Source: Mustelus asterias
Taxonomy: Eukaryota
Assembly (NCBI RefSeq): GCF_964213995.1
Contig: NW_027591003.1
Location: forward strand, 62,001-126,000
DNA: 64,000 nt
Direction: 5' to 3'
The translations under genes and the position numbers were made by a program. How positions within the stretch are numbered: the stretch's first letter is position 1; every line of letters starts with the position of its first letter. Shown here piece by piece: positions 3,070 through 64,000 of the stretch. Under the pieces are notes generated by a model, which was not told the DNA's origin, did not search any database, and worked only from the letters and a program-made list of their open reading frames with translations.

Positions 3070-3372
3070 AATGCCACGCACCCCGGACATACTCTCTCGC
3101 CTTTTTCCATCGCGATGATGCAAAAGCTTGAGGACATTTATAAACCGAGTCAAAAACAGTTTCTTTCCTGCTGCATTCAGACTTTTGAATGGACCAACCT
3201 CGCATTAAGTTGATCTTTTTCTACACCCTAGCTATGACTGTAACATTACATTCTATACTCTCTCCCTTTCTTCCCTATGTACAGTATGCTCTGTCTATAT
3301 AGTGAACACGAAACAATAACTTTCACTGTGTAGTAATATGTGTGATAATAATAAATCAAATGAAATCAAATA
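3070..3372 (+). mobile_element. Rex1/Babar 3' end remnant (paralog at ~20100-20405)
   Basis: ccacgcaccccggacatactctc...cctgctgc...gacttttgaatggacc...aataaatcaaat matches the 3' end of the Rex1 copies at 49-52 kb. Confidence 0.8.
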
Positions 3373-5270: not shown

Positions 5271-5500
5271 TTACAGATTCACGTTAATCTGTCCCACGCA
5301 GTATTTGGCAGCAGTCCAACCTGCTGCCAAATACCCGAAGATACTTACAGGAAGCATCTGAGGGTGTTTGTTCAGAAACTCAAAGATCTGTTTCCTCAGC
5401 ACTGAGCGCTTGGCTGCAAGCCAACTTCAAACTCTTAGCATTGTCAATGGGGCCTATTTATAAACAAATCTGCCCAGCAACAGTACTGGAGGCAAGTTAA
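5271..5500. promoter_or_regulatory. Candidate enhancer module 2 (ETS plus E-box, PU.1, NFI, MEF2, FOX); paralog at ~22219-22448
   Basis: CAGGAAG-CATCTG at 5348-5360, TTCCTC at 5392-5397, TTGGC-N5-GCCAA at 5410-5424 and CTATTTATAA at 5454-5463 overlapping TAAACA. All are retained in copy B (22296, 22358, 22402). Confidence 0.5.
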
Positions 5501-16500: not shown

Positions 16501-16806
16501 TAGAAGCTGACACAGGGTAAATTTACTGTCTAATAAAGAAGCTGGTTCAATCTCCATGAAATTTGGAGAGACGGCCTACTGCCCCATCAAAAATTCACAG
16601 GACAAGAGTAACATGGGGTTAGCTGTAAAGTTCCCCCATGCATTGCCAAATTTAACACTCCCAACTCAGGAATAGCATGATTTTGATACAAAGTGAACCT
16701 CCCTCTCACTATCAAAATCAAACATTCCTGGAAAAGGGAGACTGTCCAGAAAAAGAGTGGAACTCCCTCTACAAAGTCTGCTCAAACACAATGAAGGCAT
16801 ACAGAC

Positions 16807-17170
16807 CATAGAATCATAGAAACCCTACAGTGCCGAAGGAGGCCATTCGGCCCATCGAGTCTGCACCGACCACAATCCCACCCAGGCCCTACCCGCTAAT
16901 CCCTTTTTTTTAACCTGCTAATTTACCCGCTAATCCCTCGAACCGACGCATCCCAGGACTCGAAGGGGCAATTTTTTTTTTAACCTGGCCAATCAACCTA
17001 ACCCGCACATCTTTGGACTGTGGGAGGAAACCAGAGCACCTGGAGGAAACCCACGCAGACACGAGGAGAATGTGCAAACTCCACACAGACAGTGACCCGG
17101 GCCGGGAATCGAACCCAGGACCCTGGAGCTGTGAAGCAGCAGTGTTAACCACTGTGCTACCGTGCCGCCC
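16807..17170 (-). mobile_element. HE1-type tRNA-derived V-SINE (young)
   Basis: tRNA-like head GGGCGGCACGGTAGCACAGTGGTTAACACTGCTGC...GGTTCGATTCCC, V-domain TGTGTGGAGTTTGCACATTCTCC, and a CR1-like 3' tail gactcgatgggccgaatggcct...(TTCTATGA)n. It is absent from the paralogous site near 1220. Confidence 0.9.
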
Positions 17171-19649: not shown

Positions 19650-19825
19650 CCAAAAGAGAAAATGCTGGAAATCTCAGCAGGCCTGGCAATATCTGTGAGG
19701 AGAGAAAATAGCTGACATTTCGAATGTTTTGACAAAGGGTAATCTGGAATCGAAAAGTCAGTTCTTCCCTCTCCTTACAGGTGCTGTCAGACTTGCTGAG
19801 ATTTTCCAGCATTTTCTCTTTCCGT
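19650..19825. repeat. Imperfect ~175-bp palindromic repeat (MITE or Penelope-terminus-like); half copies at ~10035-10127, 32960-33030, 34440-34530 and 36640-36745
   Basis: aaaagagaaaatgctggaaatctcagcaggcctggca ... tgtcagacttgctgagattttccagcattttctcttt form inverted arms. Confidence 0.75.
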
Positions 19826-22800
19826 TGTTTGAAGTGCATTTGGGCGGAGTAAATTGATTCTGAATCCCTGGGGGGGAGGAATTGTAGGTTGACCCGAGAC
19901 TATCGTACTGAAGAAGACACTGTAAACACTGTTCAGGGACCTGTCGGACCCGGAACATCCAGATACTGCTAATATTGGACGCGTTGGCTTTGCAGTCAGT
20001 CTCAAAGAGTTTCAGGGACGCCCAGTTTCTGCCTCTCGCTGACTCAGCACAACCTCCGATTCCACACTTGTAAAAATATCTAAAAGCCGATGAAAATAAA
20101 ACGCCACGCACTCCAGACATACTCTGTCACCTTTTTCCATCGGGATCAAGATACAAAAGTCTGAGGGCACGTATAAACCGACTCAAAAACAATGTATTTC
20201 CTGCTGCAATAAGGCGTTTGAATGGACCTACGTCGCATTAAGTTCAGCTTTCTCTACACCCCAGCTATGAGTGCAAAATTACATTATTCACTCTCTCCCT
20301 TCCTTCCCTATATACGTTATGCTCTGACTGCATAGTGCGCAAGAAACAATAATTTGCACTGTGTAGTAATATATGCGATAATAATAAGTCAAATGAAATC
20401 AAATAAAATGTATCAAAAACACCAAGGATTATTCCTGGTGAATTGATTGCGGACAATGGAACATTCCAGAGACAGACTAACACCGAGGGATTGACAGTGA
20501 GATCCATTGTCATGTCTCTGCTAGTCCAAGAGTGAAATTGCATTTGAGCATCTGTTCCAGAAAAGAAACAATTTCAGTGTAAATTAAGTGCCTTTATTTC
20601 TGCACCTCTTCACAAGGGAATGGACATAAACAGATGACATTACATTATCAGGGTAAAGCCGTCAGTCTGATTTGTAATAATTCTGTGTCTCTGACACATT
20701 ACAGCGAAATATGATTCATTAGAAGAATTAATATCGATTTATGTAACTTAATGCTGGGATGATTGTGTTTCAGGTGTGGATAGCTATCACTGTAATTTGG
20801 GACTGGATATAAGAAGAAGGGAAGCAGTGACCCAGCGTTATTATCGCGAGACAATTAATCCACAAACTCAACTAATGTTCTCAGGACCAGGCTTCGAATC
20901 ACGCCACGGCAGATGGTGGAATTTAAGTTCAGTAAAAACGTCTGGAATTAAGAATCTACTTATGACCATGATATCATTGTCGATTGTGTAAAAACCTATC
21001 TGGTTCATTAATGTCATTTAGAGCAGGAAATATGCCGTCCTTACCTCATCTAGCCTACATGTGATTACAGAGCCACAGCAATGTGTTTAGCTCTCAACTG
21101 CCCTCGACAATGGGTGGGCAATAAATGCTGATCAGCCAGCGGCACCCATGTCCATAGAATCCCTGCAGTGCAGAAGGAGCATATCGGGCCTGCACTGACA
21201 ACGCTCTTCCCCAGGCCCTATTCCCATCCCTGCGAATTCACTTGATTCTATGGGACAATTCAGCATCGCCAAACAACCTAAATGGCATATCCTTGGAGAA
21301 TGTGCAGACTACACACAGACAGAGACCCATTCCGGGAATTGAACCATCAGTCCTTGATGCTGTAAAGTAGCAATGGTAACCACTGTGCTACCGTGCCGCC
21401 CACTAATAAATTAACAAAATAAACTCCTTATCTGAAACAATGTTACACCTTATATTTCCCCAACAGTTCCTTAACCCTGTGAAAATTAACGGTGAAAGAA
21501 AACTTCTTGACTTATAATTAAGCATTGAGTTGACAGAGAAACATAAAATTGACATTGACTTTTGACAAAGAAGCTAATGAATTAGAACGGAACACGGCAA
21601 TCAGGAAAGTTCTCCTTCAGCATCCAAATCATGACAGATCATTGTATTGGCGAGCAGCTGGTATTGGGAACACAGGATATCAGGACTTTGCGGCATAATG
21701 CACAATATCACAAGAATAAATACTTTATCTTTCACTGAACCAGGTTATGAACTGGTCATTTCTTCACTCATTGGCAGTTATGAGAGGGACTGTTAAATAA
21801 TTGAAATCAGATTATGCTGGACAACAGAACACGTTATACATCAGATATAAGTTTTTAATGAGGTGCAGAACATTGAGAATATGCCCAAGTCCCCGCTGTT
21901 CAAGGCAGATATATGATTTTCTTTTAGTTTTAATTATTTTCATTTTTGTGCCTTTACACTGATCTCATGAGACGGAGGGATTGGGGACATCAGCATACGT
22001 TGTTCATAAAGAGGCTTTAATTGTTGGAAGGACATTTCTTTGGAAGCTATACAAATGAAATAGCATCAAGTCAATTGACTAGTTTCCGATACTTTTTAAT
22101 CACATAATGGACAGTGCATTCATATAAAATATTTGCTTCGAAGAAAAAACATTTAAAATGTGCCTTCCTTTTGGGAATAAAACATTTATTGTATAACTGA
22201 CGAAGTCCCATGTTATCCTTACAGATTCACGTTAATCTGTCCGACGCAGCATTTGGCAACTGTCCAGGCTGCTGCCAAATACCCAAAAATATTTACAGGA
22301 AGCATCTGAGGGTGTTTGTTCGGTAAATCAAAAACCTGTTTCCTCAGTACTGAACACTTGGCTGCAAGCCAACTTCAAACTCTCAGCATTGTCAATGAGG
22401 CCTATTTATAAACAAATCTACCCAGCAACAGTACTGGAGGCAATTTAATTATTTTTAAGTTGCAAACATCTATGAATGTTTCCCATTTCTTCGGAAAAGA
22501 AAGTATTCAGCTTCTCTGGCACCTTGTTAGCAACAATAATGATCTCTCCAAAACAACAAAACATTGATGGATGGATATAAAAAAAATACCGGCAGATTAT
22601 GAGAGTTGATTCAGAGAGGTGATATATTTTATACTAGATAAACATGTATGCTTGTGTTTTCTTTCACTTCATTCTTCCATGGGACATGAGAATCTCTGGA
22701 AATGCCAACATTTATTCCCGTAGCCTAATTTCTTTTGAACTAAGTGGTAAGCTAGGGCATCTCAGAAGGCATTGCCCAGTTAGTTATATTGCTGTCCGTC

Positions 22801-23218
22801 TGCAGTCACATCCTGATGAGACCAGGTAGGGATGGCAGATTTCCTTCATTGGGGAATCAGAGAGGTTTATCTGGTCGCTGTCAGTATGTATTCCAGATTT
22901 ATTGATTGAATTCAAATTCCACCAGCTGCCAGGGTCGGATTTAATCTCGTGTCTCCACATCATTGGCCTGGGCTTCTGGATTACTGGTACACTGGCATTA
23001 ATGTTACGCCACCATCTACCCAACAATAAAGGAATGCTTGCGTTGATGCAGGGATGAACGATAGTTGGATGCCTGAATGTTTTGCTTGAGAAATCAGTGA
23101 GTGGACAGATGGATGCGACGATAGCTGGTCCTAAATTTTGCTGTTCTACAAACGCATATTTGTGATTTACTACTTCAAAAATCGAAGCAGGTCCTTTATT
23201 CCAAGTGTGTCAGTATAT

Positions 23219-25915: not shown

Positions 25916-28466
25916 AAATCTTCAAATCCAAGATGGAAAGAGGGATTAGGTTGAGGGGGAGGATTGTAATGTTTGTAACATATGGCCCTTTCTAGTGCAA
26001 TAAATCACTCAACATATCATCACCTAAATTAGCGAAGGTAACAGGCTAAAAAACTAATGAGGCAATTGAAATGTTGTGAAACTCACTGGACAGATCCAAG
26101 TGGTAAATGACTTTCCAGTACTGTGTAAGTGTGCAAGGGCGGCACGGTGTCATATTGGTTAGCCCTGCTGCCTCACAACGCCAGGGACCCGGGTTCAATT
26201 CCGTCCTCAGGTCACTGTCTTTGTGGACTTTGCAGTTTCTCTCCTTGTCTGTGTGGCTTTCCTCCGGGTATTCTAGTATCCTCCTGCAGTCCGAACATAT
26301 GCAGTTCAGGTTGATTGGCCATGCTGAATTAACCCTTGTGTCAGGGGCATTAGTGGGGTTAATATGAGGGGTCACGGGAATAGGGCCTGGATAGGATTGA
26401 GGTCGCTCCAGACTCGATGGGCCCAATGGTCTCATTCTGCACTGTAGATTCTTTGTTCTATGAATAATTAATCTGGATCTTAAGATTCTATAACGTCATA
26501 TTAGATATTATAAATTATATATAACATTAGATACAGGTACTTTCAGTGATACAGTCACTTTAAAAATGGTTACACACTCCAGTTATATATCAGGGGTTTA
26601 TGTGTGATGATGAGCTGATTACGTGTCAATAAAGCGCAGAGGCTGCTGGGTAGCTGCTCATTGTCCTCGGTCTGATTCAATTCAACTTCCCAGTGAATTC
26701 TGGGACAGATTTGATTCTTTGGTGACAGAAAGGCCAAAGTGACCTCAATAAATTTGAATCTCAATAAACTACAATAAATAAACTGCAACTATATTTGTAC
26801 CAAATAAAATGCTGAAAATAATTTGTGAAATATTTATTTATTTTTGTGATTTGGCGATTATTAGTAATATGAGCGCCAGGCAATGACCATCTCCAAAAAG
26901 AGAGAATCTACCCATTGCTCCTTGTCATTCAATGATGATACGATACTGAAGCACCCACTATAAACATCGTCGGGGTTACCATTGGCTAATCGCTGAATTA
27001 ACTGGATGTTTAAATGCTCCGGCTGGAATATCAGCTCAGCTTGCTGTGACTAACTAACCTCCTGACTCCCCAAACCTGTCCACCACCTACAAAACAACAA
27101 CTCAGGAGTGTAATAGAGTTCTCTCCACTTGCTTGAATGAGTGCAGCTCAAACAACATTCAAGAAGCTTTATAGCATTCAGGACAAAGCAGGCGGCTTGA
27201 CTGGCATAGCATTTGCAAATACTCACTCCCTCCACCACCGACAAAGAACAGCAGCATTGTACATCATCTCCAAGTTTCACTTCAGGAACTCACCAAGACT
27301 CATTATGCAACACCTTCCAACCACAGGACTGTTACCATTTGGAAGAACAGGGGTAGGAGTTACCTGGGAATATCACCTGTAAATTCCACTCCAAGTCAGT
27401 CATATAACTGACTTGGAAAAATATCGCCCTTCCGTCACTGTCGCTCGATTGAAATCCTGGAACACCCTCTGTAACAGCACTGTGTGAGTACATACGCCAC
27501 AGGCTTCGCAGCGATTCACGAAGGTAGCTCACCACCAGCTTACTAAGGGGAATTAGGGATAGGCAACAAATTTTGACCTGGCCAGCAACGATCACATCAC
27601 TTAAATTAAAACGTAAATATATTAATGTCTATGAATGGTTGGTAACTGGTGAACAAAATTATGCAACTTTGTGAATGGATGGCAATTGGTGAAAATAAAT
27701 ACCAATTTTGTGAACATTTATCATCTTCTCTTTCTTAATGGAAGATAGGATGCGCTCCACAGGAGTTGCATGATTCAAAAGCACAACACGACCGGGGAAA
27801 AAAGCCGCCAGAGGACACTGCAACAACTACAGATATATATACATCATTGCCAGTGACACATCTGAAAACATTCATCTGTTTGAAGATCCGGATTATCCTG
27901 AAGCACAATGTTGTGTTTTTAATGGAAGATTGACTCTGGAAAATATCTGCTTTATATGCCCTATGTACTTATCTTTACCTTCGTCAACTAGAAGTGGGCA
28001 GCAAAGGAGTCTGGGAAGGGTTTTTATTTTAACTTTAAAAGTCAGTTACCTGGGAGGTTCCCCCTCATTGATCCACTGGAGCAAGCTGAGAGGGGTGATT
28101 GAAAAGCAGCAGTGCTGGTAAGAGATTAATTGGATTAATTGAATTGTTTATTTATTTAATTAGTCAGCTAGTGTGTGTATTTTTTTGGCCTTTACTTTAA
28201 CAGCAGTTTTTCAAGTTTAAAGTGAAAACTAGAAGTGGGCAGCAAAGGAGTCTGGGAAGGGTTTTTATTTTAACTTTAAAAGTCAGTTACCTGGGAGGTT
28301 CCCCCTCAGTAGTAGTTTTTTTTTTCTCTCGGGCCCCTAGCCCTATAAATTGGTGCAGAGGAGATACCCGATCCTCTACACTGGTAGAGGATCCCACCCT
28401 TCCATCCTCCTCTAACCTAATTATAAGTGTGGGGAAGTTTTTTGTTTTCTTTTTTTCTTGCTGGTA

Positions 28467-29396
28467 ATGGCTTCAGGGATGGCAGTTCAGGCAGTATGCT
28501 GCATCTCCTGTGGGATGTATGTGGTGAGGAAATCCAGTAGTGTTTCAGGAGATTTTAGTTGTAAGAAGTGCATTAGATTGCAGCTTCTGGAGGAGCGTGT
28601 AAAGGAGCTGGAGGGGGAGGTAGAGGAACTCCGCATAATTCGGGAGGCGGAGGTGGAAGTTGATAGGAGTTATAGAGAAATAGTAACTCCTAGAAATGAG
28701 GCTTGGGTCAATGCCAGGAGGAGGGGTAAGAAGCAATCGGGAAGACAATCCCCTGGGGCGGTTCCCCTCCATAATAGGTTTTCGGTGCTGGAGGCTACAG
28801 TTGAGGAGGAATCAACTGAGCATAGAGAGCAGATCTCTGGGGGTGAGCCGAGTGAGAAAGCTCAGGTGGTTAGGGGCTGTAAAAGACTGGGCCTTGTGAT
28901 TGGGGACTCCACAATTAAGGGGACAGATAGGAGGGTCGGAACTAAAGGTAGGGACTCAGGGTTGGTCTGTTGCCTACCAGGGGCTGGGGTCCGGGATGTG
29001 TCTGACAGGGTATTCAGGACTCTTAGGGGGGAGGGAGATAAACCACAAGTTATTGTACATGTGGGGACACACGACATAGGGAGGATAGGGGAAGGGGATA
29101 TTAGGCAGGGATTTATGGAGTTGGGGTGGAAACTAAAGGCCAAGACTGACAGAGTGGTTATCTCTGGACTCTTGCCTGTTCCACGGGATAGTTTAGAGAG
29201 GAATAGGGAGAGGGAAGGTTTGAATTCATGGCTGAGGGGATGGTGCAGGAGGGAGGGGTTCAGGTACTTAAGCAATTGGGGCTCGTACTGGGGAAGGTGT
29301 GACCTCTATGAGAAGGATGGTCTACACCTTAATCAGAAGGGGACCAATATCCTGGGGGGTAAATTTGCTAAGGCCATGCAGGGAGGTTTAAACTGA
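28467..29396 (+). CDS. CR1 ORF1p: CxxC..CxxC zinc finger, coiled coil, SGNH/GDSL esterase
   Basis: First ATG at 28467. Contains CCISC...CKKC, the heptad LEERVKELEGEVEEL, and esterase blocks VIGDS, LPGA, VHVGTHD and DGLH. Confidence 0.9.
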   Translation: MASGMAVQAVCCISCGMYVVRKSSSVSGDFSCKKCIRLQLLEERVKELEGEVEELRIIREAEVEVDRSYREIVTPRNEAWVNARRRGKKQSGRQSPGAVPLHNRFSVLEATVEEESTEHREQISGGEPSEKAQVVRGCKRLGLVIGDSTIKGTDRRVGTKGRDSGLVCCLPGAGVRDVSDRVFRTLRGEGDKPQVIVHVGTHDIGRIGEGDIRQGFMELGWKLKAKTDRVVISGLLPVPRDSLERNREREGLNSWLRGWCRREGFRYLSNWGSYWGRCDLYEKDGLHLNQKGTNILGGKFAKAMQGGLN

Positions 29397-29448
29397 TTCG
29401 GGGGGGGGGGGAGGGATCCTGAGTAGTGGGGCTGAAAGTGAGGGATGC

Positions 29449-32268
29449 ATGGATGGGGACTGCAATGCACGGCATTGCAGAGGTGGGGTGGAGCAGGGTT
29501 TGAAATGTGTATACTTCAATGCCAGGAGTATTCGCAATAAAGTGGGTGAACTTGCAGCGTGGATCAGTACCTGGGACTTCGATGTTGTGGCTATTTCAGA
29601 GACATGGATAGAGCAGGGGCAGGAATGGATGCTGCAGGTCCCGGGGTTCAAATGTTTTAGTCGAAGTAGGGAAGGAGGTAGAAGAGGGGGAGGGGTAGCA
29701 TTATTGGTCAGAGATTGTATCACAGTGTCAGAGAGGAGGTTTGATGAGGACTTATCTGTTGAGGTAGTATGGGCGGAGATTAGAAATAGGAGAGGAGAGG
29801 TCACCCTGTTGGGAGTCTTTTATAGACCTCCTAAAAGTTCTAGAGAGGTTGAGGAAAGGATTGCGGAGTCAATCCTGCTTAGGAGTGAAAGTAATAGGGC
29901 AATTGTTATGGGGGATTTTAACTTGACTAATATTGACTGGAATTGTTATAGCTCTAGCTCGTTAGAGGGGTCAGTTTTTGTTCAAAGCGTGCAGGAAGGT
30001 TTTTTGACTCAGTATGTAGACAGGCCAACTAGAGGTGAGGCTATATTGGATCTGGTGCTGGGAAATGAGCCAGACCAGGTGCTAGACTTGGAAGTTGGTG
30101 TGCATTTTGGTGATAGTGACCACAATTCGGTTACGTTCACCTTAGTGATGGAAAGGGATAGGCATGAACCTCGGGCCAGTGGTTTTAGCTGGGGGAAGGG
30201 TAATTATGAGGCTATTAGGAGAGAATTAGGAAACATAGGTTGGACTAGGAGATTACAGGGACTGGGAACGTCCGACATGTGGAGTTTTTTCAAGGAGCAG
30301 CTACTGCGAGTCTGTGATAGGTATGTCCCTGTCAGGCAAGGAGGAATTGGTAGGGCTAGGGAACCGTGGTGCACCAAAAAAGTTTCTTTGTTGGTTAAAA
30401 AGAAAAAGGAGGCTTATGTTCGGATGAGACGTGAGCACTCGGGTAGTGCACTAGAAAGCTTTAGATTGGCTAAGAGGGAGTTGAAGAGCGAGCTTAGAAG
30501 GGCTAAAAGGGGACATGAGAAGACTTTGGCGGATAGGGTTAAAGAGAATCCTAAGGCGTTCTATAGGTATGTCAAGAACAGAAGGTTGGTTAGGGCAAGT
30601 TTAGGGCCAGTTATAGATGGCAGAGGGAAGTTATGTGTGGAACCGGAGGAGATTGGTGAAGCATTGAACCAATATTTCTCTTCGGTGTTCACGCAAGGGG
30701 ACATGAATATAGCTGAGGAGGACACTGGGTTGCAAGGGAGTAGAATAGACAGTATTACAGTTGATAAGGAGGATGTGCAGGATATTCTGGAGGGTCTGAA
30801 AATAGATAAATCCCCTGGTCCGGATGGGATTTATCCAAGGATTCTCTGGGAGGCAAGAGAAGTGATTGCAGAGCCTCTGGCTCTGATCTTCAGGTCGTCG
30901 TTGGCCTCTGGTATAGTACCAGAAGATTGGAGGTTAGCGAATGTTGTCCCATTGTTTAAGAAGGGGAACAGAGACTTCCCCGGGAATTATAGACCGGTGA
31001 GTCTCACTTCTGTTGTCGGCAAGATGTTGGAAAAAATTATAAGGGATAGGATTTATAGTTATTTGGAGAGTAATGAATTGATAGGTGATAGTCAGCATGG
31101 TTTTGTGGCAGGTAGGTCGTGCCTTACTAACCTTATTGAGTTTTTTGAGAAAGTGACCAAGGAGGTGGATGGGGGCAAGGCAGTGGACGTGGTATATATG
31201 GATTTTAGTAAGGCGTTTGATAAGGTTCACCATGGTAGGCTTCTGCAGAAAATGCAGATGTATGGGATTGGGGGTGATCTAGGAAATTGGATCAGGAATT
31301 GGCTAGCGGATAGGAAACAGAGGGTGGTGGTTGATAGTAAATATTCATCATGGAGTGCGGTTACAAGTGGTGTACCTCAGGGATCTGTTTTGGGGCCACT
31401 GCTGTTTGTAATATTTATTAATGATCTGGATGAGGGTATAGTTGGGTGGATTAGCAAATTTGCTGATGACACCAAAGTCGGTGGTGTGGTAGACAGTGAG
31501 GAAGGGTGTCGTAGTTTGCAGGAAGACTTAGACAGGTTGCAAAGTTGGGCCGAGAGGTGGCGGATGGAGTTTAATGCGGAGAAGTGTGAGGTAATTCACT
31601 TTGGTAGGAATAACAGATGTGTTGAGTATAGGGCTAACGGGAGGACTTTGAATAGTGTGGAGGAGCAGAGGGATCTAGGTGTATGTGTGCATAGATCCCT
31701 GAAAGTTGGGAATCAAGTAGATAAGGTTGTTAAGAAGGCATATGGTGTCTTGGCGTTTATTGGTAGGGGGATTGAATTTAGGAGTCGTAGCGTTATGTTG
31801 CAACTGTACACAACTCTGGTGCGGCCGCACTTGGAGTACTGTGTGCAGTTCTGGTCCCCACATTACAGGAAGGATGTGGAGGCTTTGGAGAGGGTGCAGA
31901 GGAGGTTTACCAGGATGTTGCCTGGTATGGAGGGGAGATCCTATGAGGAGAGGCTGAGGGATTTGGGATTGTTTTCGCTGGAAAGGCGGCGGCTAAGAGG
32001 GGATCTTATTGAAACATATAAGATGATTAGAGGTTTAGATAGGGTGGATAGTGATAGCCTTTTTCCTCTGATGGAGAAATCCAGCACGAGGGGGCATGGC
32101 TTTAAATTGAGGGGGGGTAGTTATAGAACCGATGTCAGGGGTAGGTTCTTTACCCAGAGGGTGGTGAGGGATTGGAATGCCCTGCCAGCATCAGTAGTAA
32201 ATGCGCCTAGTTTGGGGGCGTTTAAGAGATCCGTAGATAGGTTCATGGACGAAAAGAAATTGGTTTAG
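29449..32268 (+). CDS. CR1 ORF2p: apurinic endonuclease plus reverse transcriptase
   Basis: 939 aa uninterrupted. APE motifs NARS, ISETW, YRPP, GDFN, LDL and SDH; RT motifs PGPDG, NYRPVSL, QHGF, DFSKAFD, GVPQGS and FADD; CR1 C-terminal WNALP. Confidence 0.96.
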   Translation: MDGDCNARHCRGGVEQGLKCVYFNARSIRNKVGELAAWISTWDFDVVAISETWIEQGQEWMLQVPGFKCFSRSREGGRRGGGVALLVRDCITVSERRFDEDLSVEVVWAEIRNRRGEVTLLGVFYRPPKSSREVEERIAESILLRSESNRAIVMGDFNLTNIDWNCYSSSSLEGSVFVQSVQEGFLTQYVDRPTRGEAILDLVLGNEPDQVLDLEVGVHFGDSDHNSVTFTLVMERDRHEPRASGFSWGKGNYEAIRRELGNIGWTRRLQGLGTSDMWSFFKEQLLRVCDRYVPVRQGGIGRAREPWCTKKVSLLVKKKKEAYVRMRREHSGSALESFRLAKRELKSELRRAKRGHEKTLADRVKENPKAFYRYVKNRRLVRASLGPVIDGRGKLCVEPEEIGEALNQYFSSVFTQGDMNIAEEDTGLQGSRIDSITVDKEDVQDILEGLKIDKSPGPDGIYPRILWEAREVIAEPLALIFRSSLASGIVPEDWRLANVVPLFKKGNRDFPGNYRPVSLTSVVGKMLEKIIRDRIYSYLESNELIGDSQHGFVAGRSCLTNLIEFFEKVTKEVDGGKAVDVVYMDFSKAFDKVHHGRLLQKMQMYGIGGDLGNWIRNWLADRKQRVVVDSKYSSWSAVTSGVPQGSVLGPLLFVIFINDLDEGIVGWISKFADDTKVGGVVDSEEGCRSLQEDLDRLQSWAERWRMEFNAEKCEVIHFGRNNRCVEYRANGRTLNSVEEQRDLGVCVHRSLKVGNQVDKVVKKAYGVLAFIGRGIEFRSRSVMLQLYTTLVRPHLEYCVQFWSPHYRKDVEALERVQRRFTRMLPGMEGRSYEERLRDLGLFSLERRRLRGDLIETYKMIRGLDRVDSDSLFPLMEKSSTRGHGFKLRGGSYRTDVRGRFFTQRVVRDWNALPASVVNAPSLGAFKRSVDRFMDEKKLV

Positions 32269-49074: not shown

Positions 49075-51290
49075 TTTAATTTGATTTAATTTATTATTGT
49101 CACATGTATACAGTGAAAAGTAATGTTTCTTGCGCGCTATACAGAGAAAAACATACCGTTTATAGAGAAGGAAACGAAAGAGTGCAGAATGTACTGTTAC
49201 AGTCATAGCTAGGTTGTAGACAACGATCAATTTAATGCAAGGTAGGTCCATTCAAAAGTCTGACAGCAGCAGGGAAGAAGGTATTCTTGCGTTGGTTGGT
49301 ACGTAACCTCAGACTTTTGTATCGTTTTCCCGAAGGAAGAAGGTGGAAGAGAGAATGTCCGGGGTGCGTGGGGTCCTTAATTACTCTGGCTGCTTTCTGA
49401 GTCAGCGGGAAGAGTAGACAGAGTGAATGGAAAGGAGGCTGGTTTTTGTGATGGATTGGGCAACATTCACGACCTTTTGTAGTTTCTTGCGGTCTTGCGC
49501 AGAGCAGGAACCATACCAAGCTGTGATACAACCAGAAAGAATGCTTTCTATGATGCATCTGTGAAAGTTGGTGAGAACCGTAGCTGACATACCAAATTTC
49601 CTTAGTCTTCTGAGACAGTAGAGGTGTTGTGGGCTTTCTTAACTATAGTGCCGGCATAGGGAGACCAGGACAGGTTGTTGGTGATCTGGATACCTTCAAA
49701 CTTGAGGCTCTTGACACTTTCTACTTCGCCCCCTTTGATGTAGACAGGGGCATAGCCTCCTTTACGCTTCCTGAAGTCGATGACAATTTCCTTCATTTTG
49801 TTGACTTTGAGGGAGAGATTATTGTTGCCGCACCAGTTCAACAGATTCTCTATCATTCCTCTATCTCATCATTGTTTGAGATCCGAGCCACTGCGATGGT
49901 GTCCTCGAAAATCGAATTGGAGGGAATTTTGGCTGCACAGTCATAGGTGTATAAGATGTATAGTCGGGGGCTGAGAACACAGCCTTGTTGGGCAACGGTG
50001 TTGACGATGATCATGGAGGAGGTGTTGTTGCCTATCCTTACTGATTGTGGTCTGTGTGTTACGAAGTTCAGGATCCAGTCGCAGAGGGAGGTGCTGAGGC
50101 CCAGGCCACTGAATTTGGAGATGTGTTTCGTGGGAATAATAGTGTTGAAGGCTCAGCTGTAGTCAATAAATAGGAGTCTGACATAGGTGTCCTTGTTATC
50201 TAGATGTTCCAGGGTTGAGTGCAGGGCCATGGAAATGGCATCTGCTGTGGACCTCTGGTGGCGGTAGGGAAACTGTAGTGGATCCAGGTAGTCCGGGAGG
50301 TTGGAATTGATTCGTGCCATGACTGACCTTTCGGACCAATTCATAATGATGGATGTCAGAGCCACCGGTGATAGTCATTAAGGCACGCTGCTTGGTTTTT
50401 CTTAGGAACTGGGATGATGGTCGTCTTCTTGAAGCAGATACGGACCTCAGATTGTTGTAAAGAGAGGTTGAAAATGTCTGTAAATACCCCCGCCAGCTGA
50501 TCTGCACATGATCTGAGTGCTCATCCGGGTACCCCATTCGGGCCAGTTGCTTTCCATGGGTTGACCTTCAAGAAACCGCCTTGACATCTGCAATTGTGAC
50601 CCCAGATATAGGTTCATCCAGGGCTTCCAGGGTGGAGGACATGCTCTCGCTGACCTCTTGCTGAAAGCGGGCGTAGAATGCATTGAGCTCATCAGGAAGA
50701 GCTGCGTTGGTGCCAGCGATTTTACATGCCTTCATCTTGTTGCCTGTTATGCCTTGCAGATCTTGCCATAGTCGGCGGGGTCGGTTTGGCTAGCCTGGGA
50801 CTCTAGCTTGATCCGGTATTGTCTTTTGGCATCTTTGATGGATCTCCTTAGATCATATCTGGCTTTTTTGTATAGGTCAGTGTCGCCTGACCTGGACGCC
50901 TCAGACCTGGACTTCAGCAAGCAGTGAATATGCCTGTTCATCCATGGTTTCCAGTTGGGGAACACACGGATTTGCTTCTTTGGCACACAGTCTTCTACAC
51001 ACTTACTAATGAAGCCAGTTACGGTCGTGGCGTACTCGTTCAGGCTGGTCGCAGAGTTTTTAAATACTGACCAGTCCACTGACTTCAAGCAGCCCCGTAG
51101 AAGATCATTCGATTCCTCAGACCAACATTGCACGACTTTCTTTGATGGATTTTCCCGCTTCAGTTTTTGCTTGTAAGTCGGGAGCAGGAGCACAGCCTTA
51201 TGGTCTGAATTGCCAAAGTGTGGGCGGGCGAAAGAGCAGTAGGTATGTTTGATATGTGTGTACCGGTGGTGCAGGATGTTTGGGCCTCTG
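49075..51290 (-). mobile_element. Rex1/Babar-clade LINE, 5'-truncated and frameshifted, in the Cmu4-TM1 intron
   Basis: Fragments [40 protein letters not shown] and LTNFHRCIIESILSGCITAWYG, with an AATAAA-(ATCAA)n tail. Confidence 0.88.
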
Positions 51291-51469: not shown

Positions 51470-52347
51470 CGTTTTCAAGTTTGCTGATGACACCACCGTA
51501 GTGGGTCGGATCTCAAACAATGACGAGATAGAGGAATGATAGAGTACAGGAATGAGATAGAGAATCTTGATAACTAGTGCGACGCCAATAACCCTCCCTC
51601 AATGTCAACAAAACGAAGGATATTGTCATCGGCTTCAGGAGGCATATTGGAGAACATGTCCTATCTACATCAAAGGGGAGGAAGTAGAAATGGTCGAGAG
51701 CTTCATATCTTTAGCTGCACAGATCACCAGCAACCTGTTCTGGTCCCCGCATGCCTACACTATAGTTAAGAAAGCCCACCAACCCCTCTACTTTCTCAGA
51801 AGACTAAGGAAATTTGGCATGCCAGCAATGACTCTCACCAAATTTTACAGATGCACCATAGGAAGCATTCCTTCTGGTTGTATCACAGCTTGGCATGGCT
51901 CCAGCTCTGCCCAAGACCGCAGTTAACTACAAAAGGCCGTAAATGTAGCCCAATCCATCATGAAAACCAGCCTCCTTTCCATTCACTATGTCTACACTTC
52001 CCGCTGTCTCGGAAAGCAGCCAGCATAATTAACGACCCTACGCACCCCGGACATTCCCTCTTCCACCTTTCTCCGTCGGAGGAAAGATAGAGAAGTCTGA
52101 GGTCGCATACCAACCGACCCAAGAACAGCTTCTTCCCTGCTGCCATCAGAGTTTTGAATGGACGTATCGCGCATTAAGTTGATCTTCAGCTACACATTGG
52201 CTATAACTGTAACACACTACATTCTGCACTCTCTCGTTTCCTTCTCCATGAAAGGTATGCTTTTTCTGTAGAGGGCGCAAGAAACAATACTTTTCACTGT
52301 ATCCCAAGCATGTGACAATAATATTAAACCAAGCAAATCAAATCAAA
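51470..52347 (+). mobile_element. Rex1/Babar-clade LINE 3' fragment, inverted relative to 49075-51290
   Basis: KFADDTTVVGRISNND, KKAHQPLYFLRRLRKFGM and FYRCTIGSIPSGCITAW, with tail aaatcaaatcaaat. Confidence 0.88.
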
Positions 52348-56023: not shown

Positions 56024-56418
56024 TCAATGACAGGAATTAACGGTGTCCATCAGTGCAAGAGAAATGTTCACAAAACTGGGTTTACCGCTGGATTTATCAA
56101 CCGTTCTGTTGATGATCTTCAAGGGGATGGCTTCATGTCCCACCACACAGGAGTAAGAAGCGCCGCTGGCCCACTCCAACGCTGCAATGGATAACAGACT
56201 GTACATGAAGAAGGAGCTATTGCCGTTCTCCGCCATCACCTTCGTGTTACTGTAGTTCCCGGGGTTCACCGGCTTGTCTTTGAAGGTCCACTTGACGAAG
56301 ATCTCTCGGGGGGAGAAACCTCTCACTAAGCAGGAGAGGGAGACTATTTTTTGAGCGGAGACTTCTTCTGCGGAGGGCATGAGGACAGAAACGGACGGTT
56401 CCCGCGGATTTGGATCTG
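56024..56418 (-). CDS. IGHM: IgM heavy chain exon Cmu4 plus secretory tailpiece
   Basis: Acceptor ttttCAGCAG (NAGNAG, exon start 56418 or 56415). Translates (A)[43 protein letters not shown]...[49 protein letters not shown]. The tailpiece has an N-I-S glycosylation site and a penultimate Cys. An internal donor G|GTAAAC at 56086/56085 serves the membrane form. Confidence 0.97.
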
Positions 56419-56639
56419 CTGAAAATATATAATAAATGTCAATAAAGTGGAGAGTTCCAGATACAATTAAACGGTAGACCAGAGGCGAGGGGAATGTTTT
56501 GGATGTATGGGTTTAAATGTTCATCTTTGTGATCTGCCCGGTTTCCCAGTTCGGAGCAGAGATTGATATGCTTTTCTTTGCTCCCTACTGTTCTGGATTT
56601 CAATTCTGCACCAGGCCCTTCCTATCTTACCCCCAGAGG

Positions 56640-58250
56640 TACAGGGGAAACCAATAAATGCAATGCACTTGGATTTCCAAAAAGCATTCAATAGGGAAAT
56701 GCACAAAAGGCTACTTAATAAGAAAAGAGGCCATAGTGTTGGCGGTATTATATCATCATGGACAGAGAATGGGCTAACTAAAAGAAGCCAGAAAATTTGG
56801 ATCCGGGGAGCATTTACAAGATGGCAAACTGTAACTAGTAGAGTGCCACTAGAACCGCTGCTGGGATCAGCATTATTGATGATATATGGAAATGAGGTAA
56901 ACAAGATAGTTGAATGTACAATAGTTAGGTTTGCGGATCGAACAAAATAGGTGGGAAGGCAAGTGATGAGAATTTTGCAAAAAATCTGCAGAGGAATATG
57001 AGCAGGTTAAGCAAGTGAACAAAAACTTGGCAGGTGGAATATAATGCAGGACAATGTGAATTTATGCACATTGTTGGGAAGAGTAAAGGGGTTGAATATT
57101 ATTTAAATGGACAAAAACAGCATAAAGCTGCAGCAACATGCGATTTGGGGATCATCGTGCATATATCACAAAAACTAGCGTGCAAGTTCAGCAGGTAATG
57201 AGAAATACAAATGGAATGTTGGGCATCATTTTAAAAGGAATGGAATATAACAATAGGGAAAAAAGGATAAACGATGCAACCTGGCACAATCTTCAAATGG
57301 TGAAGAGTTTTGATCCCAATAAATAAGGAAATGACAGAAATGATTGACGAGGGAAAGGCCGTGAATGTTGTCTACATGGAATTTAGTAAAGCATTTAAAA
57401 AGATCCCGCATGGCAGGCTGGTGCAAAAGGTTCAATAACATGGCATCAAGGGTGAACTCGCTGGATGAAGTCAGAACTAGCTTGGCCATAGAAGACCGTA
57501 GCGGTGGAAGGATGTTTCTTTTTTCTGAATGGCGGTCCATAACTGGTGGTGTTCCCCACGGATCAATGCTGAAACCTCTGTTGTTTGTAATATATATAAA
57601 TATATATATATCTTATATACATTACTTCAATAACATGCAGCTGGCATCATTAGAAAATGTGCGGATGATACTAAGATTGCTGGAACTGCGGATAGTGATG
57701 AGGATTGTCAAATAATACAGCAGGATATAGGTAGACTGACAATTTGGGAGGGGAAATGTCAGATGGAATTTTATCCGGACAAATGCGATTTGATGCATGT
57801 TCCTTCGAGGAATGGTTGAGGAGGTCTGCCATGTAACTCACTGGAGATTAGATGAATGTGAGGCAACCTTATTGAGCTATATATCATGCTCAGGTGTCGG
57901 GACAGGGTAGATGCTGAGAAATTTCTTTTCTCCCCTTTTGTGGAAGAGTCTCGGACTACAAGGTATAATATCTGAGTAAGGGACTGGGCCATTTAGGACA
58001 GGGATAAGGAGGAATTTCCTCTCAGAGGGTAGTGAATCTGTTAAATTATTTACTACAGTGGTCTCTAGACGCTGGGTCATTAAGTATGTTCGTAGACAAA
58101 TTTGTAATCAATAAGGGAATCAACAAATATGGAGTTGGGGCGGGAAAGTGGTGCAACGTTACCCTATCGGATGTGTCATGATCTCACTGAATGCCAGAGC
58201 ATACTCAAAGGGTCGAATGACTATAACTTACTGCCCATGCTCTTACTCAA
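56640..58250 (+). mobile_element. Two old CR1 RT fragments in the Cmu3-Cmu4 intron
   Basis: HLDFQKAF...VTSRVP...FAD (56640-57270) and a second decayed RT-to-3'UTR piece (57345-58250). Confidence 0.8.
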
Positions 58251-58459: not shown

Positions 58460-58768
58460 CTTCTTCCTTGTGGACGGATTTTCTTAAAGGTGTCGGCAGA
58501 TCCTCATGGTTCGCAATGCAGTCAAACACAGTCCCACTCAGCCAGGCTTGTGTTGAGATGTTTAAGTTGCTGACGACGCTGTAAGGATCCTCTCCAGGCT
58601 TTTCAGCAATTTCTGATTTCAAAGCCTTCTTGTCTTGGCTCCAGGACACGTTGAGTCCATAAGGAGCATGAGATATGACACAGGTTAAGGTTACAGTAGC
58701 CTCCAGTAAGACCTGTTCAATTGGTGGTGGCAGTATTGTCAAGGTGGAATCAGCATTCTGGTAAGAAT
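58460..58768 (-). CDS. IGHM: IgM heavy chain constant exon Cmu3
   Basis: Acceptor tttttcctttgcAG at 58770-58769 and donor GTGAGT at 58459. Translates (D)[102 protein letters not shown]. The [13 protein letters not shown] signature is typical of shark mu CH3. Confidence 0.96.
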
Positions 58769-59446
58769 CTGCAAAGGAAAAATGAAAATCAACACAAGTT
58801 CCATCTTCAGAATCAAGACAACATTATTCAGCCCTCACACTCTAAATGGAATAAATCAACTTCGAGATATCAAACTCCAACCATCGCCCTTAATCTTCTA
58901 TAGTCAATGAAAAACCAGCTTGGTCTGGGAAAACTATTCTCATTGTTAAAATATTTCTGCTCCACTCCCATTCTAATGAATCGACATTGCAACTTTCCCA
59001 ATACAAATATATCATTCCTGATCTCAGGAATGCAGTCCTGAACGTTGGTTTATAAATAGGGTGAATGCACTTTTCAACACATTACCCTAAAGGTGTTACC
59101 AGACAACGACATCAGTCCAAATATTATCAGCTGCCTCAGGAATTTCTGTGCATATTAATGCATGTCACACTAATAAATGAAATCAAAGGATAAAGCTGGT
59201 ATCAATTCCACCTCTCTCACTATATGACATCAAAGTATCAAAGTTGGGGGAATCATTGTTTGCAATTCTGATAAAATCCTGAATAGTGAGCAATCCAAAT
59301 GGAGCTCTTACATTAGAATGAAACACAAACTACATAGAAATAACTAAGAATTTGTTGCCTGCTATGTCCTAACTTCAATCATTTTTGGTTTTGATTAAAA
59401 GCAGAGCGCAGAGTAACCAATTTCTTTATTGGTCTGTGCCTCTTAC

Positions 59447-59761
59447 CCAGAGATCCAGTGATGTTTCGACTTTGGAGGAGGCCTTGATGAGTGACCTGGC
59501 AGGTATAGACTGCTTTGCTGAACCATTCTCCAGCGGAGACTGTCAGCCCACTGCTCGCCGAGAAGTTCCCATTCGCATTCCAGGCGGGAGAGGTGACAAT
59601 TCCTGAATCCATGGGTTGTCCATTCTTCAGCCACTTCACCGTCATTGACTTTGGAAAGAAATCGATAATTGAACAGATAACGGTTGCAAATTTGCTTCTT
59701 GTGATTTCTTCACTGGAACTCACGGTGAGGATAACGGTTGGTGCGATGTCATCTCGAGGAC
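59447..59761 (-). CDS. IGHM: IgM heavy chain constant exon Cmu2
   Basis: Acceptor tttctgaAG at 59763-59762 and donor GTAAGA at 59446. Translates (C)[104 protein letters not shown], in frame with ORF 59379..59723. Confidence 0.96.
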
Positions 59762-59968
59762 CTTCAGAAACACATGTTAATCATTTTCAGCAGAAGATGT
59801 TGATCAATCAAATGCATTCTGTATTATCAATTCATTTGCAGTCAATGGACACAAACCTGGATATTCCAGGGGTCAAGAATATGCAGATCTCTATAAATTA
59901 GTTATAACAAATGTCACATACAGGTTAATCAAAGGAATTTTGTTATGTACAATTTCTACAACACTTAC

Positions 59969-60268
59969 ATTGCATTTCAATGCTCTTATCTGAACCGCTG
60001 TGTCGAACCTCACAGTTGATGTTGCTGCATGCTCCCTCTGACTCGGTGATGGTTAATTGGCTGCTTAGGGTGTAGGTTCCCTTTGTGTTTCTCATTGATG
60101 GGTAAGTCTTAACTCCAGTGGTGATCGGCTGTCCATCTTTCTTCCAGGTCAGCCTGGTGATTTCTGGGAAGTAGTCCATCGCCAAGCAGCCGTAGGTGAC
60201 GGTGCCGTCGGTGTTGTGTTGCTGACAGGAGGAGACCAGGTTGTGGAGAACGAGCGGAGACGGTGTCG
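59969..60268 (-). CDS. IGHM: IgM heavy chain constant exon Cmu1
   Basis: Minus strand: acceptor ttctttcccAG at 60270-60269 and donor GTAAGT at 59968, phase 1. Translates (A)[99 protein letters not shown]. This is a C1-set Ig domain with B/F-strand Cys, C-strand Trp and the light-chain-linking Cys, matching shark mu CH1. Confidence 0.96.
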
Positions 60269-61269
60269 CTGGGAAAGAATGGCCGATATAACAAGTTAGA
60301 CTCTGTTATTTGCGATTACTAAGCCAGCAGACATTTCAGGATTTGACCAGAACTGTGAGGTTATGCTAATATTTCCGAACAAAACCTACATCACATTTGA
60401 GATTTTATTTGTGCTATTAGTTAGAAACCATCACCTGTTCCTTCCCTCTGTAGAAACTCACATCTCTTTCTCCGTCTCTGTCACATTGGAGAAAAAAAAC
60501 ATTTTGACGTTATCTGAATGACATACATGGCATTGGATCAAAAGAGAAGAGACAGCGGATTCAGTCCATCAACTCTGCGACCATTTGTTTCTCAATCATC
60601 AACAGTTGGTGAGGAGGAAGTTGTCTCTACATTTATGTCGTTGCAGTTTTGGAAATTAGAGAATCCCTACAGTACAGAAGGAGGCCATTTGGCCCATTTA
60701 GTCTGTACCAATGACAATCCCACCCAGGCCCTATTCCCAAACCCTGCTACTGCTCTTGCGAACCCTGCCAGCTCGTGGAATATTCTCTGTAAACACATTT
60801 CATATCGAATATTACCCTGCTAATCCCCCTGACACTAGGGTCAATTTAGCCTGGCCAGTCAATGTAACCCGCACATCTTTGGAGTGTGGGAGGAAACCGG
60901 AGCACCCGAAGGAAACCCACGCAGGCACGGAGAGGATGTACAAACTCCACACAGACAGTGACTGGGGTTGAAATCGAGCCTGGGTCCCTGGCGCTGAGAG
61001 GCAGCAGTGCTAAACACTGTGCCACCATGCGGCCAAATTGCCAGTGTTCAAGCCCACTAATGCCCCTCTCCTCCTCTTTCCATCCCTCTGCCACCAAACG
61101 CCCCCTCCTACAACACCCAAAGCCCCAAAAACAATGATTCGTGACTTTGCTTTAAAAATGCCATCAGGATGAATATTTATGTAATCATCATATGCCCTAA
61201 CTGTCAATACTAATTCAAGCAATTGCAATTACTACTTGAACTACAAAGACGACTTGCATGACGAACGGC

Positions 61270-62290
61270 AAAATCAGCAAGTGATAGTCCATAGGAAGGT
61301 GGCTGTGGTTATGGAGGGTCAGTCATCTCAGCTCAAGAACATCTCTGCCTTCGGGTAGTATCCTAAGCCGAACAGTCTTCAGCTGCTTCAGCAATGACCT
61401 TCCCTCCGTCGTAAGGTCAGAAGTGGGGATATTCACCAATGATTCGCCACTCATCAGATGGTGAAGCAGTCCATGTTCAAATGCAACAAGATCTGGACAA
61501 TATCCAGGCTTGAGTCTGACAGGTGGCAAGTAACATTCGCGCCACACAAATGCCAGGCAATGACAATCACAAATAAGGGAAACTCTAAACACAGTCCCTT
61601 GACTTTTGATGGTGTTAACATCACTGAATCAATGTCGACACTTTTGGGGTTACCATTGACCAGAAACTCAACTGGGCACACCACATAAACACAGTGGCTA
61701 CGAGAACAGTTCAGAGGCTAGGAATACCGCGGCGAGTAACTCAACTCCTGACTCCCCAAAGCCTATCAATCAACTAAAAGGTACTTGTCAAAAGTGCAAT
61801 GGAATACTCCCCACTTGGCTGGATGGGTGCAGCTCCAACAACACTCAGGAAGCTTGACACCATCCCGGACAAAGCAGCCCGCTTGATTGCCACGGATCTA
61901 CAAAGATCCAATCTCTCCACCACCGACGCTCAGTAGCAGCAGTGTATGCTATCTGCAAGATGCACTGCAGCAATTGACCAAAGATTCTTAGACAGCAGCT
62001 TCCACACTCAAGAACTCTTGCATCTAAAAGGACAACGGCGGCAGATAAATGGGAACACCTCCACCTGCAAGTTCCCCTCCAAGCCGTTCACCATCCCGAC
62101 TTGGAAATATATCGCCGTTCCTTCGCAGTCGCTGGGTCAAAATCCTGGAATTCCCTCCCTAACGGCATTCCACAGAACATGAACTGCAGCGATTCAAGAA
62201 GGCAGCTCACCACCACCTTCTCGAGGGCAACCAGGGATGGGCAATAAAGGCTGGCCATCCAGCGAGCCCATATCCCAAGAATGAATAAAC
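61270..62290 (+). mobile_element. Old non-LTR retrotransposon 3' part (non-CR1 family, clade uncertain); related remnants at ~6975-8425, 11640-12520 and 26873-27600
   Basis: Decayed RT and C-terminal motifs (cttcagctgcttcagcaatgaccttccc, KCQAMTI, ctcctgactccccaaagcct), with 3' end gggcaataaa.gctggcc...catcccaagaatgaat. Confidence 0.75.
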
Positions 62291-62459
62291 AAAATAATTA
62301 AACAATTTTCTCTAATCTTAGGACCATACATTCAAAGCATGAGAAGGACATTCCGCCCCTTGAGCTTTCTCCTCCATTCAGTAACATCATGGCTGAACTG
62401 ATTGTGCTGTTAACTCCATATTCCAACCTTTCCCCTCGCCTACGGAAAGTTAGCTGTCT

Positions 62460-63115
62460 ACTCTTTCCCGGATCTTTCCCCGATCCCTCGGCTTTCCACA
62501 TTTTTCCCCGGCTCCCTGCGCTTTGACCCGTCTCACTATGCTCTCTGCACATTTGACCCCCGCCCCCCCACTTCGCTTTTCCCCGCGTCTCTGCCATGAC
62601 TCCCTCTCCCTACACTTTCCCCAGGCTCTGTGCCCTTTCTCTGCTCTTTCTGGACTTTCTGTATGCTACGTTCCTTCCTGTATCTCCACTCTCTCTCTAC
62701 CATTGTCCCCCGGCTCTCTGCCCTTTTCCCCGCCTCTTTGCCCTTTCCCCCGACTCCTTGCTTTTTTCACCGGCATCCTGCCATTCCCCCTGGCTCTCTG
62801 CTCTTTCCCGCCAGCTCTTTTCCCAATCACCCGGCTGTATGCCCTTTCCCATGGTTCTCAGCCCTTTCCCCCCGACTCCCTGCATTTTCCTCCGGTTCTG
62901 TACTCTTTTCCAAGGCATTCTGTAATTTTCTCCGACTCTCTGTACTTCCTTTCATCTTTGTGCCCGTTCCACCGGCTGTCCATCCTTTAACCTGGTCTCT
63001 GAATTTCCCTGGCTGTCGGCCATTTCCACTTGCATCCTGTGGTTTCCCCGCCTCTGTGCAGTTTCCCTGGCTCTTGAGCTTCCCTTCATCTCTCTCTTGG
63101 CATTCTCCTGCATTT
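62460..63115 (-). repeat. Degenerate ~20-bp tandem repeat in JH-Cmu intron, G/A-rich on the sense strand
   Basis: Plus-strand units such as cccttttccc cgcctctttg / ccctttcccc cgactccttg / ccattccccc tggctctctg. Sense consensus is about GGGAAAGGGCAGAGAGCCGG, with roughly 30 units. Confidence 0.85.
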
Positions 63116-63165
63116 GGACATCACTCGTCTGCAGATCTCACTTCAGTTCTCTGTTGTTGAATAGA

Positions 63166-63216
63166 CCACCCCCCCCCCCCACCACCTCCCCACCTCCCTC
63201 CCCACCCACCGCCGCC
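63166..63216 (-). other. G-quadruplex motif on the IgM sense strand
   Basis: Minus strand reads GGCGGCGGTGGGTGGGGAGGGAGGTGGGGAGGTGGT-G12-TGG, giving at least four G3+ runs with short loops. Confidence 0.75.
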
Positions 63217-63227
63217 GATTTCGCGAC

Positions 63228-64000
63228 TGTGAGTGGGAGAGTGTGAGTGAGTGATGCTGGGTGAGGGATGAGGGTGAGTGAGTGAGGCTGATTGAATGAT
63301 GGTGAGTGAGTGAGAGTGAGTGACACAAAGAAGTTTCAGTGACTGAATAAGTGCATGGGGATGATGAAGATGAGTGCACATGAGTGAGTGTGAGTGAAGG
63401 TGAGTGAATGAGGGTGAGTGACGCAACTAAGTTTCAATGAGTGAGTGAGTGCATGGGGATGGATGAAGATGAGTGCATATGAGTGAGTGTGAGTGAACGT
63501 GAGTGAGTGAGGGTGAGTGAGGGCGACTGAGTGACGCTGTGTGAGTGAGGTAGTGTGAAAGTGAGTGAGTGAGAATGAGTGAATGATGTTGGACAGTGTG
63601 TGAGTGTCACTGAGAGTAACTGAGGTTGGGTGAGTGAACCAGGGTGACTGAGTGAGGTGGTGAAAGTGAGTGAGAGTGAATTAGTGAGTCTTAGTGAATT
63701 GTAATGAGTGACTGAGTGAGGGTGAGCGATTGTGAGTGAATCAGGATGTGTGAGTGAAGGTGATTGAGTTTCAGTGACGGCGAGTGATTGAGGAAGAGTG
63801 AGCGTGGGTGACTGAGAGATGGTGAGTGAGTGAGGTTGAGTGAGGATGAATGCCGATGGGTGTGTCAGGGTGAGGGTGGGTGAAGGTGAGTGTGGGTGAA
63901 TGAGGCTGGGTGAGTGGGGATGAGTGAATGAAGGTGGATGAATGAGAGTGTGTGAGCGAAAGAGGGTGCATAAGAGCATGTGAGTGAGTCGGGGTGAGTG
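63228..64000. repeat. (TGAG)n-based degenerate microsatellite with an internal ~98-bp duplication
   Basis: Dense GTGAGTGAGT/GGGTGAGTGA motifs to the window end. The block aagtttca...gtgcatggggat...gatgaagatgagtgca occurs at ~63331 and ~63429. Confidence 0.9.

Follow-up and report, generated by a model that had tools for sequence, protein, structure and literature searches.

The switch (S) regions of mammalian immunoglobulin heavy chain (IgH) loci measure 1-12 kb according to the accessible part of one source (PMC9921937), and AGCT and GGGG are named as their two common motifs in the accessible text of another, where synthetic switch repeats carry four AGCT per 80 bp (PMC4245955). Switching experiments involving inversion and G-rich cassettes are described in the available portion of a third publication, in which a 1-kb artificial G-rich cassette partly rescued switching in the mouse (PMC5485518). 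The S regions of Xenopus are presented as AT-rich and endowed with stem-loop potential in the available passages of two reviews (PMC4279169, PMC8201067). In sharks, the usual layout of IgH clusters is V-D-J-C, as set out in the accessible parts of two papers (PMC5192425, PMC12227049). Shark Ig loci are reported, in the portions available of four publications, to possess neither S regions nor cryptic promoters and yet to exchange VDJ between clusters (PMC4279169, PMC8201067, PMC4588147, PMC6795676); the reviews among them describe nurse-shark switching as a process operating without either (PMC4279169, PMC8201067, PMC4588147). The accessible parts of four papers contain nothing on repeats of the J-C intron (PMC5192425, PMC12227049, PMC2435157, PMC9936319).

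In the present work, we discuss a tandem array found upstream of the IgM constant region gene of the shark Mustelus asterias, in a window of 64,000 nucleotides (the whole stretch of DNA analysed, to which all positions refer). A first, sequence-only reading had proposed that this array might be a proto-switch or AID-targeting element located where S-mu would be expected. No such array in a shark IgM intron was found described in the titles and abstract openings searched, a result that does not establish its absence from print. We present the gene, the array and its neighbours, their motif content and their counterparts in other sharks, and then weigh the possible origins of the array.

The IgM constant region gene

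Judged by its exon sequences, the minus-strand gene of the window is a shark IgM constant region whose exons are open and intact. Four exons encoding Ig C1-set domains, all with readable splice sites, succeed one another on the minus strand: CH1 (59969..60268; E 7.9e-16), CH2 (59447..59761), CH3 (58460..58768) and CH4 with the secretory tailpiece (56024..56418). The transmembrane exon TM1 (48208..48339, minus strand), followed by a short TM2, matches catshark membrane forms at 82-83% in tblastn. CH1 is 78-85% identical to its four best matches, which are catshark and houndshark heavy chains, one of them named IgM; identity amounts to 78% with Triakis IgM and to 66-68% with nurse-shark mu chains. 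The full-length PDB matches of CH4 and its tail, over residues 7-131, are Ig mu chains (E about 1e-48), while the single top PDB match of CH4, an IgG1/IgG4 hybrid, covers residues 4-99 only. The C1-set domains and these matches to shark heavy chains and to Ig mu uphold the name Cmu that the gene had received initially. The CH4 acceptor contains a tandem CAGCAG (56415-56420), which makes one-residue alternative splicing possible.

The array lies 2.2-2.8 kb upstream of CH1, and its measured distance from the CH1 acceptor, 2199 nt, agrees with the 2.2 kb first estimated. Its assignment to a JH-Cmu intron found no such confirmation: no J-segment motif was found in the window, whose end is situated 3732 nt upstream of CH1. 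Extrapolating from the standard V-D-J-C cluster layout, the array is probably inside the J-C intron.

Two broken VH relics occur on the minus strand downstream of Cmu (2860-3085 and 19820-20116), with stops, frameshifts and repeat interruptions. They belong to a segmental duplication (1-6268 versus 15637-23214, 77-83% identity) whose copies are about 17 kb apart, and no J motif was found beside either relic. These broken sequences supply no second J-C intron for comparison.

Structure and composition of the array

The array (62467..63110, minus strand) is a degenerate 20-bp minisatellite of about 33 units with a sense consensus of about GAAAGGGCAGAGAGCCGGGG, purine- and G-rich on the IgM sense strand. 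Aligned to the tandem consensus, its units show a mean identity of 72%. Autocorrelation peaks at 20, 40 and 60. Over 62460-63110, its value at lag 19-21 is 0.456 for a null of 0.363 +/- 0.008, and not one of 1000 block shuffles equals it. Examined by thirds, this periodicity is equalled by 18 of 1000 shuffles in 62460-62700, by none of 1000 in the core and by 248 of 1000 in 62900-63110, indicating that the ends of the array are eroded. The best-preserved core (62698..62899, minus strand) attains 80-94% to the tandem consensus in sliding windows. The degenerate repeat of about 650 bp and 20-bp period noticed at the outset is therefore real, with Tandem Repeats Finder recovering the core only (62693-62894, period 20, 9.9 copies, 66% matches). 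Elsewhere in the window the 20-mer has no copy: at three mismatches or fewer, six matches were obtained against 0.01 expected, all of them within the array.

On its sense (minus) strand, the array has a G content of 0.41, a purine content of 0.77 and a skew of +0.48, for an overall 55% GC. When 1267 intervals of 651 bp were scanned, the fraction reaching its purine content was 0.0 and that reaching its skew 0.002; the purine- and G-rich character claimed for the transcribed-sense strand is thereby verified, the array being the most purine-rich tract of the 64 kb. GGGG is enriched tenfold (32/kb versus 3.2/kb in the window). No Pfam family was recognized in three ORFs of the array or in that of the TGAG repeat described below, the longest of the array ORFs matched none of 295 candidates in a protein search, and a search of Rfam with the array gave none to E 1. 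The array contains long ORFs because its composition is stop-poor. Its RNA shows no excess of stem-loops on folding (z 0.35, with 12 of 20 shuffles as good).

As a head-to-tail repetition of a unit in the 10-60 bp range, non-coding and without known RNA family, the array has the attributes of a minisatellite. It resembles the G-rich intronic minisatellites of the VNTR class in unit size, strand asymmetry, a preserved core with eroded ends, G4 potential and a divergence at least as fast as that of its flanks, and differs from them in that, at 72%, it is too degenerate for active mutation.

Other repeats populate the window. A high-copy interspersed repeat made of LINE-like fragments (61234..62412) separates the array from CH1; it was recognized by its depth in X1, one of the sequencing runs presented below (8e4-2.6e6 over 61234-62281 and 4042 over 62282-62412), and by internal copies of about 70% at 8001-8414 and 27048-27570. 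A SINE-like repeat of very high copy (60654..61035), also detected by depth in sequencing runs and presumably HE1-like, carries a G4 motif of its own (60719-60744). On the plus strand, 28416-32265 holds an apparently intact CR1-like LINE, in which ORF1 (326 aa) is of the GDSL-esterase type and ORF2 (958 aa) of the endonuclease/RT type. A pair of oppositely oriented LINE RT fragments (14270-15506 and 38338-39574) is 99.5% identical over 1237 nt, which points to recent retrotransposition. The CH3-CH4 intron (56685-56984) and the region downstream of the TM exons (45903-46202) share a repeat that is 95% identical over at least 300 nt, and the CH4-TM intron harbours an inverted repeat of about 850 nt at 81% (49081-49906 and 51486-52332).

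G-quadruplex, predicted R-loops and the TGAG block

A canonical G-quadruplex (G4) motif with a G12 run (63169..63207, minus strand) is located about 58 nt 5' of the array, which bears out, as a prediction, the initial description of such a motif just 5' of the array on the same strand. Identified by regular expression, it is one of 12 canonical motifs (loop 1-7) in the window, has the highest G4Hunter score of the window (2.96) and forms a predicted R-loop initiation zone. With a QmRLFS-type rule, in our own implementation, four R-loop-forming sequences are predicted in the window; two of these are on the sense (minus) strand, among them 62317-63207. The array and its G4 thus have predicted R-loop and quadruplex potential.

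Upstream, the array adjoins a degenerate TGAG/GTGA simple-repeat block (63230..64000, plus strand) that the first reading had missed. This block counts 72 TGAG, includes a 99-bp unit present in 2.2 copies (63302-63520) and runs off the end of the window. It is G-rich on the antisense strand: its sense-strand skew of -0.77 is the strongest in the window, with a polarity opposite to that of the array and of S regions, and its own predicted R-loop sequence (63259-64000) is on the plus strand. The plus-strand skew consequently passes from about -0.5 to +0.75 within 200 bp, with a sharp switch at about 63220, the site of the G4. The proximity of two repeats of opposite skew shows that simple repeats of both polarities build up in this interval.

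AID hotspot content

The consensus unit contains one RGYW and one WRCY, on opposite strands and about 7 nt apart; over the 33 units, GGCA is found 7 times and AGCC 9 times. The statement that the unit carries hotspot motifs is correct for the consensus and does not extend to the density of the whole array, which equals that of the window: WRCY and RGYW together number 37 per 651 bp, against a window median of 35, and a fraction of 0.405 of the 1267 intervals are at or above this value. Hotspot density is 62/kb in the rest of the intron versus 57/kb in the array, and only the 211-bp core exceeds its own shuffles (16 versus 9.2; 1 of 500). AGCT occurs twice, as in the median of the window (3.1/kb versus 3.2/kb in the whole window), and WGCW 11 times, again the median (16.9/kb versus 17.9/kb); neither motif rises above dinucleotide shuffles of the array. 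At 3.1/kb, AGCT is indeed as scarce as had been cautioned, and WGCW at background gives no reason to expect focused double-strand breaks.

Conservation averages 0.72 in the eight hotspot columns of the unit versus 0.73 in the other twelve and reveals no sign of selective retention. One count favours the earlier proposal: of the 93 C on the sense strand of the array, 37 have a WRC context, compared with 109 of 430 for the remainder of the intron. The template strand has 267 C, of which 112 belong to SYC coldspots and 26 to WRC, a distribution that disfavours paired breaks.

The array in other sharks

The contigs of four sequencing runs, out of 20 public runs listed, were mapped at 80% likeness onto 59400-63300. 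X1 corresponds to the organism matching most of the stretch, and X6, X13 and X5 to three other organisms; X1 may be the source sample, in which case it is not independent. A single X1 contig of 1988 nt covers 62219-63300 with two differences and, as it spans the array, an assembly artefact was rejected. The X1 depth of array bins 62544-62674 and 62806-63198 is that of the cognate contigs (105-113), against up to 1e7 in SINE/LINE bins, and the array as a whole is thus not part of a recent dispersed element. Across 59400-63300, cognate X1 contigs have a depth of about 96-109, a single LINE copy 15.5 and paralogous pieces 28-44; several near-identical copies of the IgM cluster may account for these values, depth being unreliable as copy number.

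The close relative X6, at 95% in two flanking pieces, also has the array. Orthology being assumed, the X6 contig piece at 62841-63158 displays 26 differences in 318 array positions versus 43 in 883 flanking ones (Fisher p 0.035), so that at the sequence level the array is no better conserved in this relative than the flanking intron. The low X6 cover at 62544-62674 and the start of the piece at 62841 were not counted as evidence, and its end at 63158 coincides with a stretch skipped in mapping (63159-63213).

The units that most resemble the consensus are in bin 62675-62805, the sole array bin with a large contig excess, and this in all four runs: the excess above neighbouring array bins is 3410 in X1, 2596 in X6, 74 in X13 and 10 in X5. 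A microsatellite origin of this excess was rejected, since no simple repeat of 1-6 nt matches the bin at 76% over 25 nt. In the simplest reading, better-preserved copies of the 20-mer probably exist elsewhere in the genome; they could be grouped in one or a few blocks of satellite type, dispersed as minisatellites or arrayed within other IgM clusters. Relative to mean Cmu-exon depth, the core excess is 2.5 in X1 and 2.7 in X6, but 0.09 in X13 and 0.37 in X5. The X1/X6 ratio of the core excess, 1.31, is among the six exon ratios (1.08-2.36), the repeats giving 2.44-2.87 (four SINE) and 1.98-2.88 (eight LINE), with the proviso that contig depth, once summed, does not give a copy number and that two species make a weak ratio comparison. 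In X1 and X6 the core excess follows Cmu-exon depth, a hint that keeps a link with IgH alive and lends no support to a function. A metagenome scan with a two-unit pattern produced no shark IgM locus, and another with a shark CH1 alignment produced 115 pattern matches, none confirmed as a shark IgM locus.

Relation to known switch systems

With Xenopus S-mu, the array has in common that it is a repeat upstream of Cmu in an ectotherm. Xenopus S regions are rich in AGCT, whereas the array is AGCT-poor, contains 55% GC and folds no better than its shuffles. With the inter-cluster isotype switching of nurse shark it shares the type of locus, and it occupies the interval where exchanges between clusters would join; switch junctions in this species, in work attributed to Zhu et al. 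2012, reportedly map in the JH intron. Because the switching studies concern nurse shark, which belongs to another order than the closest matches obtained here, a lineage-specific element could still exist.

The likeness to mammalian S-mu and S-gamma resides in a tandem repeat 5' of Cmu, a G-rich non-template strand, GGGG clusters and predicted R-loops and G4. Unlike these regions, the array has degenerate units and AGCT at background, no identified I promoter or exon, and no paired acceptor S region at another CH gene in the window; it is also, as recognized from the beginning, much shorter, with about 0.65 kb against the 1-12 kb given in the accessible part of the source (PMC9921937). The array therefore has two properties of a switch region, tandem repetition (in degenerate form) and a G-rich non-template strand with predicted R-loop/G4 potential, and departs from it in length, in AGCT/WGCW enrichment and in the stem-loop-prone sequence of the amphibian type. 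Its membership in the S-region family was rejected on AGCT/WGCW content and length despite its skew and its predicted G4, attributes that make it S-like in part and on paper only.

Origin of the array

We consider it probable that the array is an old, decayed minisatellite with no specific role in targeting AID or in switching between clusters. A purine-rich 20-mer would have expanded locally in tandem by slippage or unequal exchange, its host probably being a J-C intron, either in a single IgM cluster or in a small subfamily of near-identical clusters. It would then have decayed in a roughly neutral fashion by point mutation, CpG decay included; in the CpG column of the unit, C>T is the commonest change (9 of 33). 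Strand asymmetry and G4/R-loop potential would follow from the purine-rich unit itself, and the array may adopt a G4 or a short R-loop during transcription of the rearranged gene. This origin agrees with the period and the 72% units, the AID motifs at background without hotspot retention, a divergence at least equal to that of the flanks, the folding z of 0.35, the TGAG repeat of opposite polarity next door and the reviews describing shark loci without S regions. Counted against it are the S-like orientation and position of the most purine-rich tract of the window, with the best G4 of the window on its 5' side and a predicted R-loop, the richness of the core in hotspots compared with shuffles, the 37 of 93 sense-strand C in WRC, and a core excess that tracks exon depth, as linkage to IgM predicts.

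We regard as unlikely the alternative that the array is an IgH-linked proto-switch or AID-exposure element, the 20-mer recurring in better-preserved form in the J-C intron of numerous IgM clusters and the present copy being a degenerate one. In this joint scenario, an R-loop would start at the G4 with its G12 run, extend through the 41%-G array and expose staggered hotspots; units shared between clusters could favour joins between them, the TGAG block would give a second R-loop under antisense transcription, leaving both strands exposed to AID, and the whole would constitute a G-skew-first, AGCT-poor precursor, or an independent analogue, of S-mu in the shark lineage. Position, orientation, G density and G4 speak for it, as does the partial rescue of mouse switching by an artificial G-rich cassette in the available text of PMC5485518. 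AGCT and WGCW are at background, though, when synthetic switch repeats contain about 16 times more AGCT (accessible part of PMC4245955), the hotspot columns are without selective retention, and S regions and cryptic promoters are reported absent from shark Ig loci in the portions available of two reviews (PMC4279169, PMC4588147). The extra contigs fall on the consensus-like core alone in four of four runs, at a bin from which simple repeats are excluded, and their excess tracks Cmu-exon depth in the two closest species; it drops to 0.09 and 0.37 of exon depth in X13 and X5, where it is confounded by divergence; moreover, contig depth does not measure copy number, and a ratio argument would need more than two species. 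The AID-targeting role advanced in the sequence-only reading is consequently not supported, given background AGCT/WGCW, hotspot columns that are not retained, no stem-loop excess, short length and conservation no better than that of the flanks.

It is equally doubtful that the array, the G tract and the TGAG block together represent the repeat-bearing remnant of an old transposon or dispersed satellite family unrelated to Ig. The intron is otherwise full of SINE and LINE fragments, which adjoin the array, and the core excess requires many matching units somewhere. A remnant of this kind is difficult to reconcile with the cognate X1 depth of 105-113 in bins 62544-62674 and 62806-63198, the 1988-nt contig with its two differences, the lack of any Pfam, protein or Rfam match and the absence of a second copy in the window, although these tests would miss a mobile element whose age puts it beyond the 80% threshold.

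Divergent skew and R-loop patterns mark bidirectional promoters and origins, and a skew switch near 63220 acting as a bidirectional intronic promoter, an enhancer or a replication origin, analogous to I-mu/E-mu, would fit the change of plus-strand skew over 200 bp, the G4 and short CpG cluster found there and the predicted R-loop sequences diverging on both strands (62317-63207 minus, 63259-64000 plus), but is very unlikely, as CpG o/e (0.48-0.63) equals or nearly equals the window's value of 0.48, a scan from CH1 to the window end recovered neither octamer nor NF-kB motifs, E-boxes of the CAGGTG and CAGCTG types are missing from 63110-63260, and two adjacent simple repeats can yield the pattern by chance.

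Implications

If the array is an ordinary repeat, as the decayed minisatellite that we favour would be, it calls for caution: the presence of G skew and of a G4 on the upstream side of Cmu does not suffice to designate a switch region. Were it a proto-switch, it would overturn the view of sharks as animals without S regions and would provide a defined sequence for studying how AID breaks were focused before tetrapod class switching; in that event, the array would focus inter-cluster switching in sharks.
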